Assembly (NCBI RefSeq): GCF_053078305.1 | Contig: NZ_CP166879.1 | DNA: 64,000 nucleotides | Strand: one strand, 5' to 3' | Shown: one piece after another, positions 56,744 to 63,031 of the stretch | Layout of the letters: each line of letters opens with the position of its first letter | How positions within the stretch are numbered: position 1 is the first letter of the stretch | Program-made: the position numbers and the translations under genes | Notes under the pieces: model-generated | Seen by the model: the letters and a program-made list of their open reading frames with translations, nothing else | Database searches by the model: none | Told to the model about the DNA's origin: nothing

Positions 56744-58105
56744 GTGGAAAAAGAAAATATCACCCTCGATCCGCGTTCTTCATTTACTCCATCTTCGTCG
56801 GCAGATATTCCCGTGCCACCAGATGGATTAGTTCAACGCAGTACCCGAATTAAACGCATTCAAACCACCGCCATGTTGTTATTATTTTTTGCGGCGGTAA
56901 TCAATTATCTCGACCGCAGTTCGCTGTCGGTAGCAAATTTGACGATTCGTGAAGAATTGGGCTTAAGTGCCACCGAAATCGGCGCTTTGCTCTCCGTGTT
57001 TTCACTCGCTTACGGCATTGCGCAACTTCCTTGCGGCCCACTATTGGATCGTAAAGGCCCACGCCTGATGCTGGGACTGGGGATGTTCTTCTGGTCACTG
57101 TTCCAGGCCATGTCTGGCATGGTGCACAGCTTTACGCAGTTCGTGTTGGTGCGTATCGGTATGGGGATTGGTGAAGCGCCGATGAACCCATGCGGTGTAA
57201 AAGTCATTAACGACTGGTTCAACATCAAAGAGCGCGGACGCCCGATGGGCTTCTTCAACGCAGCTTCTACCATTGGCGTTGCCGTAAGCCCACCGATTCT
57301 GGCGGCGATGATGCTGGTGATGGGCTGGCGCGGGATGTTTATTACCATTGGTGTACTGGGGATTTTTCTCGCCATCGGCTGGTATATGCTCTATCGCAAC
57401 CGCGAGCACGTAGAACTGACTGCCGTTGAACAAACTTATCTCAATGCAGGTAGCGTCAATGCCCGCCGAGATCCGCTCAGTTTTGCCGAATGGCGCAGCC
57501 TGTTCCGTAACCGCACAATGTGGGGAATGATGCTCGGATTCAGTGGCATCAACTACACTGCGTGGCTGTATCTGGCCTGGCTTCCTGGTTACCTGCAAAC
57601 AGCCTATAACCTGGATTTAAAAAGCACAGGGTTGATGGCGGCTATCCCTTTCCTGTTTGGGGCTGCCGGGATGCTGGTCAACGGTTACGTTACTGACTGG
57701 CTGGTCAAAGGGGGAATGGCTCCGATTAAAAGCCGTAAGATCTGCATTATTGCCGGGATGTTCTGTTCTGCCGCCTTTACGCTGATAGTACCACAAGCGA
57801 CAACATCCATGATGGCGGTTCTGCTGATTGGCATGGCACTGTTCTGTATTCACTTTGCCGGAACATCCTGCTGGGGCTTGATCCACGTCGCAGTTGCTTC
57901 TCGCATGACTGCGTCGGTGGGCAGTATCCAGAACTTTGCCAGCTTCATCTGCGCCTCTTTCGCGCCGATCATTACTGGTTTTATTGTTGATACAACCCAC
58001 TCATTCCGTCTGGCACTAATCATTTGCGGTTGCGTCACCGCAGCGGGAGCACTGGCGTACATCTTCCTGGTTCGTCAGCCGATCAACGACCCGCGTAAAG
58101 ATTAA
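56744..58105 (+). CDS. lgoT: L-galactonate:H+ symporter (MFS)
   Basis: 453-aa ORF, 12-TM MFS profile. Confidence 0.92.
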   Translation: MEKENITLDPRSSFTPSSSADIPVPPDGLVQRSTRIKRIQTTAMLLLFFAAVINYLDRSSLSVANLTIREELGLSATEIGALLSVFSLAYGIAQLPCGPLLDRKGPRLMLGLGMFFWSLFQAMSGMVHSFTQFVLVRIGMGIGEAPMNPCGVKVINDWFNIKERGRPMGFFNAASTIGVAVSPPILAAMMLVMGWRGMFITIGVLGIFLAIGWYMLYRNREHVELTAVEQTYLNAGSVNARRDPLSFAEWRSLFRNRTMWGMMLGFSGINYTAWLYLAWLPGYLQTAYNLDLKSTGLMAAIPFLFGAAGMLVNGYVTDWLVKGGMAPIKSRKICIIAGMFCSAAFTLIVPQATTSMMAVLLIGMALFCIHFAGTSCWGLIHVAVASRMTASVGSIQNFASFICASFAPIITGFIVDTTHSFRLALIICGCVTAAGALAYIFLVRQPINDPRKD

Positions 58106-58153
58106 ACTCCCTATGCCCGATAACATTTTGCTTATCGGGCATTTTTATGGCGA

Positions 58154-59818
58154 TTAAAACGTTTCCCAGTTCTCCCCGCTATCTGCCACTGCCATTTTAC
58201 GCGGCGTAGCTGGCGTCACGGTTTTTACCACAGCCGATGTTTCACGCTGCTGTTGCTGCTGTTGCTGAATCCGGAACACTGCCACAGCTTCGGTCAGGCG
58301 ACTGGCCTGCTCTTCCAGCGCGGCGGCGGCAGCGGCAGATTCTTCCACCAGCGCGGCGTTCTGTTGAGTTACCCGGTCCATCTCAGCAACCGCTAAGCCA
58401 ACCTGATCGATACCACGGCTCTGCTCATCAGAAGCAGAAGCTATTTCGCCCATAATGTCCGTCACGCGGGTCACAGCACTGACAATCTCCGCCATTGTTT
58501 CCCCGGCGCTTTCGACCAGCGTAGAGCCAACATCCACTTTCCCCACCGAGTCTTCAATCAGGCTTTTAATTTCACGAGCCGCCTGGGCGCTACGCTGGGC
58601 CAGATTACGCACTTCTCCCGCAACCACCGCAAAACCACGTCCTTGCTCACCCGCACGCGCTGCTTCAACCGCCGCGTTCAAAGCCAGAATATTGGTCTGG
58701 AAAGCAATGCCGTCAATTACGCTGATAATATCGGCGATTTTCTGCGAACTGGTGGAGATATCACGCATAGTCTGCACCACGTTATCTACCACTTTGCCGC
58801 CGCGTTGCGCCGTTTCAGAAGCACTTAACGCCAGGTGGCTGGCCTGGCGCGCATTCTCGGCGTTCTGTTTCACCGTTGCGGTCAGTTGCTCCATGCTGGC
58901 TGCCGTCTCTTCCAGCGAAGCGGCCTGTTGCTCGGTGCGCGAAGAGAGATCATTATTGCCGGTAGCGATTTCGCTGGCACCGCTATAGATGGCATTGGCC
59001 CCGTTGCGCACATCACCGACGGTACGCATCAGTTCTCCCTGCATATGGCGCAAACTCTCTGCCAGTTGCCCCATCTCATTAGAGCCATCCACCTCAATCG
59101 GTTTCACCAGATCGCCGCCTGCAATATGACGAATGCTGTCAATCAGGCGATTCATTGGCGCTACCAACGAGGCTTTAATACCGAACCAGACGGCGAAGAT
59201 GACCGCCAGTACGACGATCATCACGCCCAACAGAATCCACATCGCCTGGCTGTAGGAGGCATTGTTATCGCTGACGGCGATATCATAGAGCCGATCGTTT
59301 TGCTCCATGTAAGCCACATACTGCTTCTCGAAACCGTCCTGATATCCCTGGGTCGGCTGATCAAAGAACTCGTTGATTTTGCCTGCACCTAACAGTTGGA
59401 TCAGCTCCGCCAGCGCATTGTGATAAATATCGTAATTACGTTTGATCTCTGCCGCTGCGGCGGTGCTCTGACGCGGGTCACGCGGCAACGCTTCGTAATC
59501 CGCCCAGTTTTTTTCCGCCTGTTTCAGCGAAATACTGGCACTCTGCATCAGCTCAGCAACGGTTGAACCGCTACCAATATTATTCTGATCCATCATGTAG
59601 CGGATACCCGCGCGGTTGAGGGTGTTACGCGTCTGCAACAACGCGACCCAGCTGCCATTCAGCGTGGATTGCTGCTGACGAATGGTTTGTAAAACAGTGA
59701 AATTTTCTTTGTCATTCTTTAAGGCATTAAAGAACAGACCGCCTGATGTCAGTTGTAAAAGGCCAAAAACGGCCAAAACCAGCAGTAAGCTGGTCACGAT
59801 CTTGATACGTTTTAACAT
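58154..59818 (-). CDS. tsr: Methyl-accepting chemotaxis protein I (serine chemoreceptor)
   Basis: 554-aa ORF with two TM segments, HAMP, methylation sites, C-terminal NWETF pentapeptide; contains a 7-Gln tract. Confidence 0.96.
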
Positions 59819-60045: not shown

Positions 60046-60588
60046 ATGTTAAACCGTGACTTCGATCATCTCTCAACGCTATTACATCTCTTTTTTGAAC
60101 GTGAGGATATTTGCCAAAAGCTTAATATTATTGACCAAAACAATATCACCGGTTGGGAAGTGTGGTTCCAGGTAGAGTTTGCTAATATGCTCTGCTCAAC
60201 AGACCATGAATGGTGGCGTGAACAAGCACTTTCCTGTGATATGCGCAAAAAACCTGAGCGCCCGACACTACGCACAGATTTCTTACTACGTAAAAAAGGC
60301 TGGGCACAAGATAGCTATATCGCGCTTGAAATAAAACAAAACAGAGACGCGACCAGTTGTGTTAAAAATATGATCGCAGACTTAGAAAAAAGCGCAAAAA
60401 TAAAACGTTCCGAACTCGATTTACGCAGTTTCTGGACCTTGGGTATCACCCCTATGATAGACAGGGAAAGGCTGGACTCTCTCATCGATTGCTATTTAGA
60501 TGAGAAATTTTATCTTACTAAATCTCGTAAAAAACACGTTTTACTTAAAGAAATAAATAACACACCATATTGCTATATTGTTATTTAA
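60046..60588 (+). CDS. Hypothetical protein (180 aa), low GC, with PD-(D/E)xK nuclease-like motif
   Basis: ATG with RBS AAGGA 8 nt upstream; motif ...RTDFLL (D78) ... YIALEIK (E95, K97) with a preceding Glu-rich helix (E38/E44); AT-rich relative to its neighbours. Confidence 0.65.
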   Translation: MLNRDFDHLSTLLHLFFEREDICQKLNIIDQNNITGWEVWFQVEFANMLCSTDHEWWREQALSCDMRKKPERPTLRTDFLLRKKGWAQDSYIALEIKQNRDATSCVKNMIADLEKSAKIKRSELDLRSFWTLGITPMIDRERLDSLIDCYLDEKFYLTKSRKKHVLLKEINNTPYCYIVI

Positions 60589-60713: not shown

Positions 60714-60880
60714 CTGACCGCTTACGTCCCTAAAATAACCACTCAGTTATTTACCTTACTTTACGCGCGCGTAACTCTGGCAGCATCACTGCAGGATAGC
60801 GGTCAATTTACCTCCTCAAACGCAACGCAAACCTAGAACGGCTTCGGCCAACTATTAATCAATACATGCCAGGTTTTACT

Positions 60881-63031
60881 ATGGATACGAAAAAACTATT
60901 CAAGCACATACCCTGGGTGATTCTCGGAATCATCGGTGCATTCTGCCTCGCGGTAGTTGCATTACGTCGGGGGGAGCACGTCAGTGCCCTGTGGATCGTG
61001 GTCGCCTCTGTGTCGGTGTATCTGGTGGCGTATCGCTACTACAGTCTGTACATCGCCCAGAAGGTGATGAAACTCGACCCTACGCGCGCGACGCCTGCGG
61101 TTATTAACAACGACGGTCTGAACTATGTTCCGACCAACCGTTACGTGTTGTTTGGTCACCACTTCGCCGCTATCGCCGGTGCCGGTCCGCTGGTTGGTCC
61201 GGTGCTCGCCGCGCAGATGGGCTACCTGCCTGGCACGCTGTGGCTGCTGGCGGGGGTAGTGCTGGCCGGTGCGGTACAGGACTTTATGGTGCTGTTTATC
61301 TCCTCTCGCCGTAACGGCGCATCTCTCGGTGAGATGATCAAAGAAGAGATGGGGCCAGTACCGGGGACTATCGCGCTGTTTGGCTGTTTCTTAATCATGA
61401 TCATCATCCTAGCCGTCCTGGCGCTGATTGTGGTTAAAGCCCTGGCCGAAAGTCCGTGGGGTGTCTTCACCGTTTGCTCAACCGTACCGATTGCGCTGTT
61501 TATGGGTATCTACATGCGCTTTATCCGTCCGGGGCGTGTGGGTGAAGTCTCTGTTATTGGTATCGTGCTGCTGGTTGCCTCTATCTACTTCGGTGGCGTG
61601 ATTGCTCACGATCCGTACTGGGGTCCGGCACTGACCTTTAAAGACACCACCATTACCTTCGCGCTGATTGGCTATGCGTTTGTTTCCGCACTGCTGCCGG
61701 TGTGGCTGATCCTCGCACCGCGCGACTATCTGGCAACCTTCCTGAAAATCGGCGTTATCGTCGGCCTGGCGCTGGGTATCGTGGTGCTGAACCCGGAACT
61801 GAAAATGCCTGCGATGACCCAGTACATTGACGGTACTGGCCCGCTGTGGAAAGGCGCTCTGTTCCCGTTCCTGTTCATCACCATCGCCTGTGGTGCGGTA
61901 TCTGGCTTCCACGCGCTGATCTCTTCCGGTACGACGCCGAAACTGCTGGCTAACGAAACCGACGCGCGTTTCATCGGCTACGGCGCAATGCTGATGGAGT
62001 CCTTCGTGGCGATTATGGCGCTGGTTGCAGCGTCCATCATCGAACCGGGTCTTTACTTCGCGATGAACACTCCGCCTGCTGGCCTTGGCATCACCATGCC
62101 TAACCTGCATGAAATGGGTGGCGAGAACGCGCCGATCATCATGGCGCAGCTGAAAGACGTTACCGCACACGCGGCAGCGACCGTCAGCTCCTGGGGCTTC
62201 GTGATTTCGCCAGAGCAGATCCTGCAAACCGCGAAAGACATTGGTGAGCCTTCTGTCCTGAACCGTGCAGGTGGTGCGCCGACGCTGGCGGTAGGTATCG
62301 CTCATGTGTTCCACAAAGTGCTACCGATGGCTGACATGGGCTTCTGGTATCACTTCGGTATTCTGTTCGAAGCCCTGTTCATCCTGACCGCGCTGGATGC
62401 GGGTACCCGTTCTGGCCGCTTTATGCTGCAAGATCTGCTGGGTAACTTCATCCCGTTCCTGAAAAAAACCGACTCTCTGGTTGCCGGTATCATCGGTACT
62501 GCGGGCTGTGTGGGTCTGTGGGGCTACCTGCTGTATCAGGGCGTGGTCGATCCGCTGGGCGGCGTTAAGAGCCTGTGGCCGCTGTTCGGTATCTCCAACC
62601 AGATGCTGGCAGCCGTAGCGCTGGTACTGGGCACCGTTGTGCTGATTAAGATGAAGCGCACCCAATACATCTGGGTAACTGTTGTTCCGGCTGTATGGCT
62701 GCTTATCTGCACCACCTGGGCGCTGGGCCTGAAACTGTTCAGCACCAACCCGCAGATGGAAGGCTTCTTCTACATGGCAAGCCAGTACAAAGAGAAGATT
62801 GCTAACGGTACTGACCTGACGGCGCAGCAGATTGCCAACATGAACCACATCGTTGTGAACAACTACACCAACGCGGGCCTGAGTATTCTGTTCCTGATTG
62901 TGGTGTACAGCATCATCTTCTACGGTTTCAAAACCTGGCTTGCGGTGCGTAACAGCGACAAACGTACTGACAAAGAAACACCGTACGTTCCAATCCCGGA
63001 AGGCGGCGTGAAGATCTCTTCGCACCACTAA
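60881..63031 (+). CDS. btsT: Pyruvate/H+ symporter BtsT (CstA family)
   Basis: ORF 60866..63031; start placed at MDTKKLFKHIPWVILGIIGAFCLAVVALRRGEH (716 aa); polytopic membrane protein. Confidence 0.95.
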   Translation: MDTKKLFKHIPWVILGIIGAFCLAVVALRRGEHVSALWIVVASVSVYLVAYRYYSLYIAQKVMKLDPTRATPAVINNDGLNYVPTNRYVLFGHHFAAIAGAGPLVGPVLAAQMGYLPGTLWLLAGVVLAGAVQDFMVLFISSRRNGASLGEMIKEEMGPVPGTIALFGCFLIMIIILAVLALIVVKALAESPWGVFTVCSTVPIALFMGIYMRFIRPGRVGEVSVIGIVLLVASIYFGGVIAHDPYWGPALTFKDTTITFALIGYAFVSALLPVWLILAPRDYLATFLKIGVIVGLALGIVVLNPELKMPAMTQYIDGTGPLWKGALFPFLFITIACGAVSGFHALISSGTTPKLLANETDARFIGYGAMLMESFVAIMALVAASIIEPGLYFAMNTPPAGLGITMPNLHEMGGENAPIIMAQLKDVTAHAAATVSSWGFVISPEQILQTAKDIGEPSVLNRAGGAPTLAVGIAHVFHKVLPMADMGFWYHFGILFEALFILTALDAGTRSGRFMLQDLLGNFIPFLKKTDSLVAGIIGTAGCVGLWGYLLYQGVVDPLGGVKSLWPLFGISNQMLAAVALVLGTVVLIKMKRTQYIWVTVVPAVWLLICTTWALGLKLFSTNPQMEGFFYMASQYKEKIANGTDLTAQQIANMNHIVVNNYTNAGLSILFLIVVYSIIFYGFKTWLAVRNSDKRTDKETPYVPIPEGGVKISSHH

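Follow-up and report, generated by a model that had tools for sequence, protein, structure and literature searches.

[quoted passage not shown]

The chemoreceptors Tar and Tsr end in a flexible tail that carries the NWETF pentapeptide, and this motif binds CheR and CheB at the far tip of an unstructured linker of roughly 30 to 35 residues (PMC7390727, PMC10561060; the role of the pentapeptide is also described in PMC4692393). Linker length varies between receptors according to Bartelli & Hazelbauer 2011 and Li & Hazelbauer 2006, as these are cited in PMC7390727 and PMC10561060. In Tsr, the Parkinson laboratory defined I517 as the last conserved residue of the kinase-control domain, which in K-12 is followed by a tail of 34 residues including NWETF (PMC4692393). 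With Tar tethers of 22, 29, 34, and 46 residues, the position fitted for the CheR concentration peak moved linearly with length, at 0.128 +/- 0.048 nm per residue and for a methylation-site spacing of 1.05 nm, and tether length also altered the precision of adaptation (PMC10561060). In the same work, the shorter tether of Tsr compared to Tar (30 versus 34 residues) was argued to match the geometry of its methylation sites. The literature on this linker deals with variation between receptor types or species, whereas the glutamine tract that we describe here, placed in the same non-conserved tail between I517 and the pentapeptide, makes one receptor vary within one species.

Bacterial coding VNTRs, which change by slipped-strand mispairing and are exploited for MLVA typing, are the closest match to this tract as a DNA element. 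The tsr repeat shares with them a short unit in perfect head-to-tail arrangement, a copy number that changes in whole-unit steps, recurrence on unrelated backgrounds, and preservation of the reading frame, but its array is very short (one to four units), slow, and fixed inside clones. Eukaryotic CAG/polyglutamine repeats are stabilised by CAA interruptions, and the glutamine run of tsr likewise mixes CAG with CAA codons that interrupt the pure trinucleotide run. Unlike in the eukaryotic case, the tract is tiny, its instability lies at the level of a 9-bp super-unit, and it shows no sign of expansion bias, hairpin-driven expansion, or aggregation. A further likeness is to the contingency loci of Neisseria, Haemophilus, or Campylobacter, where repeats also mediate reversible length changes in genes for surface or membrane proteins that sense the environment. 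We nevertheless rejected classification as a phase-variable contingency locus: The unit is 9 bp long, all alleles that we read are in frame, and no variation was seen within clones; with a unit length that is a multiple of 3, copy-number changes do not switch the gene on or off. In the searchable literature, we found no report of a tandem repeat, a glutamine repeat, natural-isolate variation, or a 9-bp indel in tsr, and two matches from MLVA studies were false because “TSR” was the name of a primer or reagent there.

The tract lies in a 64-kb window of DNA (hereafter “the window”) in an open reading frame of 554 codons plus stop on the minus strand. Its product is Tsr, as judged by a full-length match to the NCBIfam equivalog PRK15041 (score 1224 bits, threshold 947, residues 1-554 on a 554-position model), the Pfam domains TarH (PF02203, residues 1-176), HAMP (PF00672, 217-263), and MCPsignal (PF00015, 327-484), and the C-terminal NWETF. 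The NCBIfam Tar model scored 752 bits, and the Tar and other chemoreceptor models stayed below their own cut-offs. Over its 3' 187 bases, tract included, the gene matches the annotated tsr of E. coli M3 at 100% identity, and a translated alignment showed the same C-terminal tail for both proteins. Among the loci that we fetched, the flanks of tsr depend on the strain: The downstream neighbour is lgoT or a TRAP transporter, and the upstream one is hpaR, a MurR/RpiR regulator, or btsT. The features of gene and tail are:

58154..59818, minus strand: tsr coding sequence, 554 aa plus stop, serine chemoreceptor (methyl-accepting chemotaxis protein I), from the open reading frame and profile matches
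58113..58142, no strand assigned: terminator-like hairpin in the intergenic region of the convergent lgoT and tsr genes, 11-pair stem followed by TTTTAT
58172..58267, minus strand: C-terminal linker, residues 518-549 (32 residues) from I517 to the pentapeptide, delimited by the boundary of PMC4692393, lack of conservation, and an AlphaFold2 (AF2) model
58157..58171, minus strand: NWETF pentapeptide, residues 550-554, from the translation and conservation among orthologues

Across 30 orthologues, N550, E552, T553, and F554 never vary, and W551 hardly does. The linker sequence is not conserved, and the tail cannot be aligned beyond the closest Enterobacteriaceae. Residue numbering is common to K-12 and window Tsr through I517, so the tract forms the first residues of the tail:

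58247..58267, minus strand: poly-Gln tract Q518-Q524, (CAGCAACAG)x2 + CAG, from Tandem Repeats Finder and allele alignment
58259..58267, minus strand: 9-bp repeat unit 1, codons 518-520, CAG CAA CAG, the unit gained or lost between alleles
58250..58258, minus strand: 9-bp repeat unit 2, codons 521-523, CAG CAA CAG, from sequence, Tandem Repeats Finder, and alignment
58247..58249, minus strand: partial unit 3, codon 524, CAG, from sequence and alignment

On the gene strand, the glutamine codons read CAG CAA CAG CAG CAA CAG CAG, that is, 2.3 copies of the 9-bp unit CAGCAACAG (period 9, 2.4 copies, and 100% matches in Tandem Repeats Finder), and the partial third unit turns the array into a 12-bp direct repeat with an offset of 9 bp. 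This run is not a chance feature: Homopolymeric amino acid runs of at least five residues occur only three times in all open reading frames of at least 100 aa in the window, two of them within tsr. An initial annotation of the window had correctly noted seven glutamines in a 554-aa Tsr (their codons lie inside the interval 58240-58275 that it had given) and had placed them properly in the linker before NWETF, where they begin directly after I517 in the non-conserved tail. Its description of alternating CAG and CAA codons does not hold, since there is no strict alternation but a 9-bp tandem repeat. Its idea of a slippage site fits a tract that proved length-variable and recurrent, but with a 9-bp, three-codon unit instead of a CAG/CAA trinucleotide. 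Instability of the CAG trinucleotide itself was rejected as an explanation: The longest pure CAG stretch is 2 codons, variants differing by one codon number at most two among 5382 genomes, and the CAA codons prevent trinucleotide slippage.

We surveyed tract length in 5426 complete E. coli genomes, of which 5382 were matched at the 3' end of tsr by a 187-nt query. Aligned records of 187, 178, and 196 nt corresponded to length differences of 0, -9, and +9. Length classes were separated with a 53-nt query composed of the tract of seven glutamines (7Q) and 16 nt of flank on either side: 3352 of the 5382 genomes matched at 99% identity or more (including up to 3 partial matches of longer alleles), 707 had the same length with one or two SNPs, 39 fell into a band of 90-95% identity, and 1284 carried a 9-bp indel. 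The majority allele is therefore 7Q with around 4056 genomes (75%). A 4Q query found 1211 genomes (22.5%; 1137 exact and 74 with one SNP), though this share overstates the natural frequency of 4Q because laboratory derivatives of K-12 or B make up about a quarter of the sampled 4Q genomes. The 10Q allele was found in 72 genomes (1.3%), counted as 61 plus 12 matches of a 10Q query, one of the 61 being partial, and as a band of 72 with a 13Q query. Between one and three genomes (<0.1%) carry 13Q: In strain Z1323HEC0355, we directly read four units plus CAG, giving 13 glutamines and a Tsr of 560 aa, while the upper bound of three for 13Q or longer is the number of records with less than 80% coverage of the 53-nt query. 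A synthetic 71-nt 13Q query was uninformative for counting this class since 7Q alleles matched it as two joined pieces at 100% identity. An independent collection of 15 billion proteins contains exact copies of the 4Q, 7Q, and 10Q proteins, each on 434 to at least 1000 contigs, but no exact copy of the 13Q protein, so that the evidence for 13Q comes from complete-genome assemblies only.

One, two, three, and four units thus correspond to 4Q, 7Q, 10Q, and 13Q, and all length steps are whole 9-bp units. The 39 genomes of the 90-95% band had been candidates for one-codon variants. This was rejected because ranks 3 and 18 of the band (LR-58-1 and an O6:H16 strain, respectively) are ungapped alleles of the same length, with 51 bases aligned, five mismatches, and no gap, so that at most two genomes could carry a one-codon change. 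The tract of LR-58-1 reads CAG CAA GAG CAG CAA CGC CAG and encodes QQEQQRQ, an interrupted form with 7 codons that accounts for about 39 of the 5382 genomes (0.7%). Neither 1Q alleles nor alleles beyond 13Q were seen in the 5382 genomes, and every allele that we fetched and translated keeps the frame through NWETF. Variation of tract length across E. coli tsr alleles, the check that the initial annotation had proposed, is therefore real, and the refuting outcome that it had named, one identical length in every allele, does not hold. Its figure of 551 aa for K-12 Tsr was also accurate: K-12 encodes QQQQ from a single unit plus CAG, and alignment shows K-12-type 4Q alleles to be without one of the two units. 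The window allele is indeed three glutamines longer, as the annotation had supposed, but the unusual allele is that of K-12, while the window carries the majority form of ancestral length.

The case for this polarity comes from orthologues. Among the matches listed, Tsr of other Enterobacteriaceae and one divergent Escherichia is 553-559 aa long, and several closer orthologues show an interrupted glutamine-rich motif, Q-Q/H-x-Q-Q/K-K/R, at the position of the tract: QQEQQKAR in Enterobacter cloacae, QQDQQKAR in Leclercia, QHDQQRAR and QHDQKRAR in Citrobacter, and QQAQQRQ(H) in the divergent Escherichia, whose Tsr is 94% identical to that of the window. Together with the 554 positions of the NCBIfam Tsr model, these lengths and motifs point to seven codons as the ancestral length and to the 4Q allele of K-12 as a derived deletion; this ancestral state rests on Citrobacter, Enterobacter, Leclercia, other genera, and the one divergent Escherichia, as Salmonella, E. 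albertii, and E. fergusonii were not among the cross-species matches listed. The likely order of events begins with a loss of the interruptions at codons 3 and 6, which would have created two identical 9-bp units and hence the pure 7Q form, from which 4Q, 10Q, and 13Q would then derive. We saw no length variants of the interrupted form (QQEQQRQ or QQAQQRQ), and the pure 7Q form is the variable one.

To place these alleles on their backgrounds, we fetched 23 E. coli tsr genes and one gene from the divergent Escherichia, aligned them with the window tsr, and compared 24 tsr alleles by haplotype table, tree, and pairwise distances. Outside the tract, tsr genes whose tracts differ in length can be as close as 3-9 nt. 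As examples, only 3-8 nt separate P393-F10 (4Q), S21 (7Q), and HS (10Q) once the tract is set aside (3 nt for HS versus S21, 7 nt for P393-F10 versus S21), ST80 or Q5 (10Q) and Z1323HEC0355 (13Q) share a local haplotype and are 5 nt apart over the whole gene, and M3 (7Q) equals PapRG-04-4 (10Q) at every one of the 47 sites that vary between -292 and +87 relative to the tract. Alleles of equal length, in contrast, can be up to 35-45 nt apart. At least three local haplotypes carry 10Q and can be told apart by their nearest flanking sites (-19, +33, +38, +52, +56, and +57), and at least three in our sample carry 4Q, with a fourth implied by the 74 one-SNP 4Q genomes that include the B2 strains BEN2908 and PMV-1. 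This contrast between closely related alleles of different length and distant alleles of equal length, seen in the gene sequences, indicates recurrent slippage and not the spread of a few old alleles. Tract length thus appears homoplasious on the 24 alleles, and recombination may have some share in it: The tsr gene of 2013C-4282 is a mosaic, most of it related to that of the divergent LR-58-1 but with a 3' end of the usual 4Q type, so recombination contributes to the allele distribution. We had also considered Z1323HEC0355 (13Q) and Z1323HEC0016 (10Q), two strains from the same study, as near-clones. This was rejected given their different restriction-modification islands and neighbouring protein accessions, and no recent step from 10Q to 13Q could be demonstrated from this pair.

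In the explanation that we consider very probable, the tract is a near-neutral coding tandem-repeat polymorphism that recurrent slippage generates in a tolerant linker, a mechanism that we infer from the pattern of alleles. The coding repeat with its 9-bp unit sits at the junction between the C-terminal methylation helix and the flexible tail bearing NWETF. Because the two units are perfect copies, nascent and template strands could misalign by one unit during replication, and unequal recombination would have an equivalent outcome. Each such event would add or remove exactly three glutamine codons and keep the frame, and repeated events in E. coli would yield the series of 4, 7, 10, and 13 glutamines, with the K-12/B laboratory allele (4Q, 551 aa) as a one-unit loss from 7Q. 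That the length polymorphism is neutral or nearly so is our assumption of the most likely case, since the linker, with its non-conserved sequence and its variable length in the literature, tolerates length changes. Two points speak against it, namely that Tar tether length measurably moves tethered CheR (PMC10561060) and that selection on length could account for the missing 1Q and >13Q alleles. In other respects, the locus is an ordinary in-frame coding tandem repeat with copy-number polymorphism.

The strongest competing explanation, which we regard as unlikely, is adaptive tuning, an idea of the initial annotation. Selection would then act on the number of glutamines through its effect on how far CheR and CheB can reach along the methylation sites, and lineages would have lengths fitted to their niches. 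The tract lies where the tether begins, the Tar series demonstrates that tether length shifts the CheR peak and alters the precision of adaptation (PMC10561060), only in-frame whole-unit alleles from 4Q to 13Q occur and the ancestral length strongly predominates, and the same lengths arise independently; restriction to in-frame changes would, however, be expected automatically from a 9-bp unit. In physical terms, 29 (4Q), 32 (7Q), 35 (10Q), or 38 (13Q) residues separate I517 from NWETF. With the Tar coefficient, each 3-residue step is predicted to shift the peak by around 0.4 nm, which is small at roughly a third of the 1.05-nm site spacing, and the full range from 4Q to 13Q by around 1.2 nm. 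An AF2 monomer model of Tsr, poor overall (mean pLDDT 67, pTM 0.39), continues the C-terminal helix with low confidence across the tract as far as residue 528, while pLDDT drops from 74 to 52, and gives residues 528-554 a pLDDT below 50. The continuing helix is a weak hint that the tract may extend the helix rather than form random coil.

Clonal stability and host spread also speak against tuning. All four HS assemblies and all three assemblies of strain 8178 are 10Q, and among the matches listed, K-12 and B derivatives are all 4Q and O157:H7 strains all 7Q. This constancy inside clones such as HS, K-12, and B identifies the tract as a slow tandem repeat and not a hypermutable switch, with no sign of fast switching. 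The 10Q genomes among the matches listed include commensal HS, adherent-invasive LF82, O104:H21, and isolates from mouse, dog, soil, and chicken, and no association of tract length with host or pathotype was apparent among these matches. A literature search found no functional measurement of any length allele other than that of K-12. If lineages had nonetheless been selected for settings of a natural, recurrent dial on tether length or helical extension, a doubtful proposition on this evidence, the sampling of the five methylation sites by CheR and CheB and the speed and precision of serine adaptation would be measurably changed, and K-12 Tsr as the basis of all quantitative chemotaxis models would be an atypical short-tether variant.

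Considerably less probable than tuning is an origin by recombination only, with three or four old length alleles of one origin each that were shuffled without recurrent slippage. Mosaicism as in 2013C-4282 versus LR-58-1 and the different tsr flanks between strains would fit such shuffling, but the 10Q alleles differ from each other at the nearest flanking sites while each closely matches some 7Q allele, which would require several conversion patches of less than ~60 bp centred on the tract, and 13Q has the local haplotype of the ST80/Q5 10Q alleles at a distance of 5 nt gene-wide. An artefact, with errors of sequencing or assembly in low-complexity DNA as the source of the length differences, can practically be dismissed: Repeats can be miscalled in long-read assemblies and the 10Q genome Q5 has a tsr annotated as frameshifted elsewhere in the gene, but the tract of 12-39 bp is far shorter than a read, thousands of independent complete genomes agree on four discrete whole-unit values only, independent assemblies of the same strain are concordant (four for HS, many for K-12), and the independent collection recovered the exact 4Q, 7Q, and 10Q proteins.

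K-12 Tsr is among the most intensively modelled sensory receptors, and our data show its 551-aa form to be a derived one-unit deletion found in about one-fifth of sequenced E. coli, a share that laboratory strains inflate. Most E. coli have 32 residues in this part of the tail compared to 29 in K-12, and some exceed K-12 by six or nine residues. The K-12 tail of all tether experiments (29-30 residues) is therefore the shorter, minority form. The argument from a Tsr tether shorter than that of Tar equally rests on a minority allele. The majority tether has 33 residues by the counting of PMC10561060 and almost reaches the length of that of Tar. For models of tether length, the natural series of 4, 7, 10, and 13 glutamines offers ready-made and evolutionarily validated constructs.

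Upstream of the glutamine tract, tsr contains a second repeat:

58319..58336, minus strand: hexa-Ala tract A495-A500 between the methylation sites E493 and E502, Tandem Repeats Finder period 6 at 58320-58338

This tract has four alanines in strain 74-2 and eight in P0006, whose protein is found on five contigs. Length variants of the alanine tract are rare, rarer than those of the glutamine tract, and their count is an upper bound only owing to cross-matches to tar. They alter the register of the helix from one methylation site to the next and may for this reason matter more for function than the glutamine tract.

Besides its poly-glutamine tract, tsr was found by strain comparison to contain a second length-variable repeat, a hexa-alanine run that lies within the methylation helix of Tsr and is flanked there by the methylation sites E493 and E502:

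58319-58336, minus strand: hexa-alanine run A495-A500 (Tandem Repeats Finder period 6 at 58320-58338)

Tsr of strain 74-2 (locus L097) has 4 alanines at this position and a protein length of 549 amino acids, and 8 are present in a Tsr of 556 amino acids from a large independent protein collection (P0006) that was found on 5 contigs. Such variants are rare, with at most around 40 among the 5382 E. coli genomes with a tsr match, a figure that is an upper bound from a count confounded by cross-hits to tar. Gain or loss of 2 residues in the alanine run would shift the helix register between E493 and E502.

The glutamine tract itself also varies by substitution. An interrupted tract of unchanged length, QQEQQRQ, occurs in about 39 E. 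coli genomes with a divergent tsr 3' end that carries many further substitutions nearby (REAS, TPSAPRKV), as in the following examples:

L005, 1801-1851: QQEQQRQ-type tsr 3' end, E. coli LR-58-1
H285: QQEQQRQ-type tsr 3' end, O6:H16 strain 2011EL-1370-2

This 3' end was either kept as an ancestral allele or acquired by import from a divergent Escherichia lineage. The tsr of strain 2013C-4282 shares most of the gene with the QQEQQRQ type and has a typical 3' end with four glutamines (4Q), and it is therefore mosaic. A single allele, that of E. coli MRY15-117 (L091), encodes QQQQQHQ through a CAG-to-CAT change in the second 9-bp unit, so that the two units are no longer identical. In E. coli Q5, a tsr with ten glutamines (10Q) is annotated as a frameshifted pseudogene, and its one additional base, at alignment column 1244, is located far upstream of the tract:

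L002, 122-1796: 10Q tsr, annotated frameshifted pseudogene, E. coli Q5

Across the window and loci L001-L005 and L081-L100 from other strains, the flanks of tsr vary by strain. Downstream of the gene there are two arrangements: lgoT and lgoR, which the window shares with K-12, and a TRAP transporter operon accompanied by a Na+/H+ antiporter. The upstream neighbour is hpaR, a MurR/RpiR regulator, or btsT. The relevant features of the window are:

56744-58105: lgoT-side flank of tsr
58113-58142: hairpin of 11 pairs followed by a T-run
60866-63031: CstA/BtsT-family gene

The lgoT and tsr genes converge, with 48 bp between their stop codons; the hairpin lies in this gap and is probably a terminator common to both genes. 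A 180-amino-acid open reading frame at 60046-60588 gave no family match.

Sequence searches detected no tsr match in 44 of 5426 E. coli genomes; one genome carries two copies, and 3 matches fall on plasmid-labelled records. Outside tsr, the sole homopolymeric run of at least 5 amino acids in the window is PPPPPP in a long plus-strand open reading frame at around 37693.
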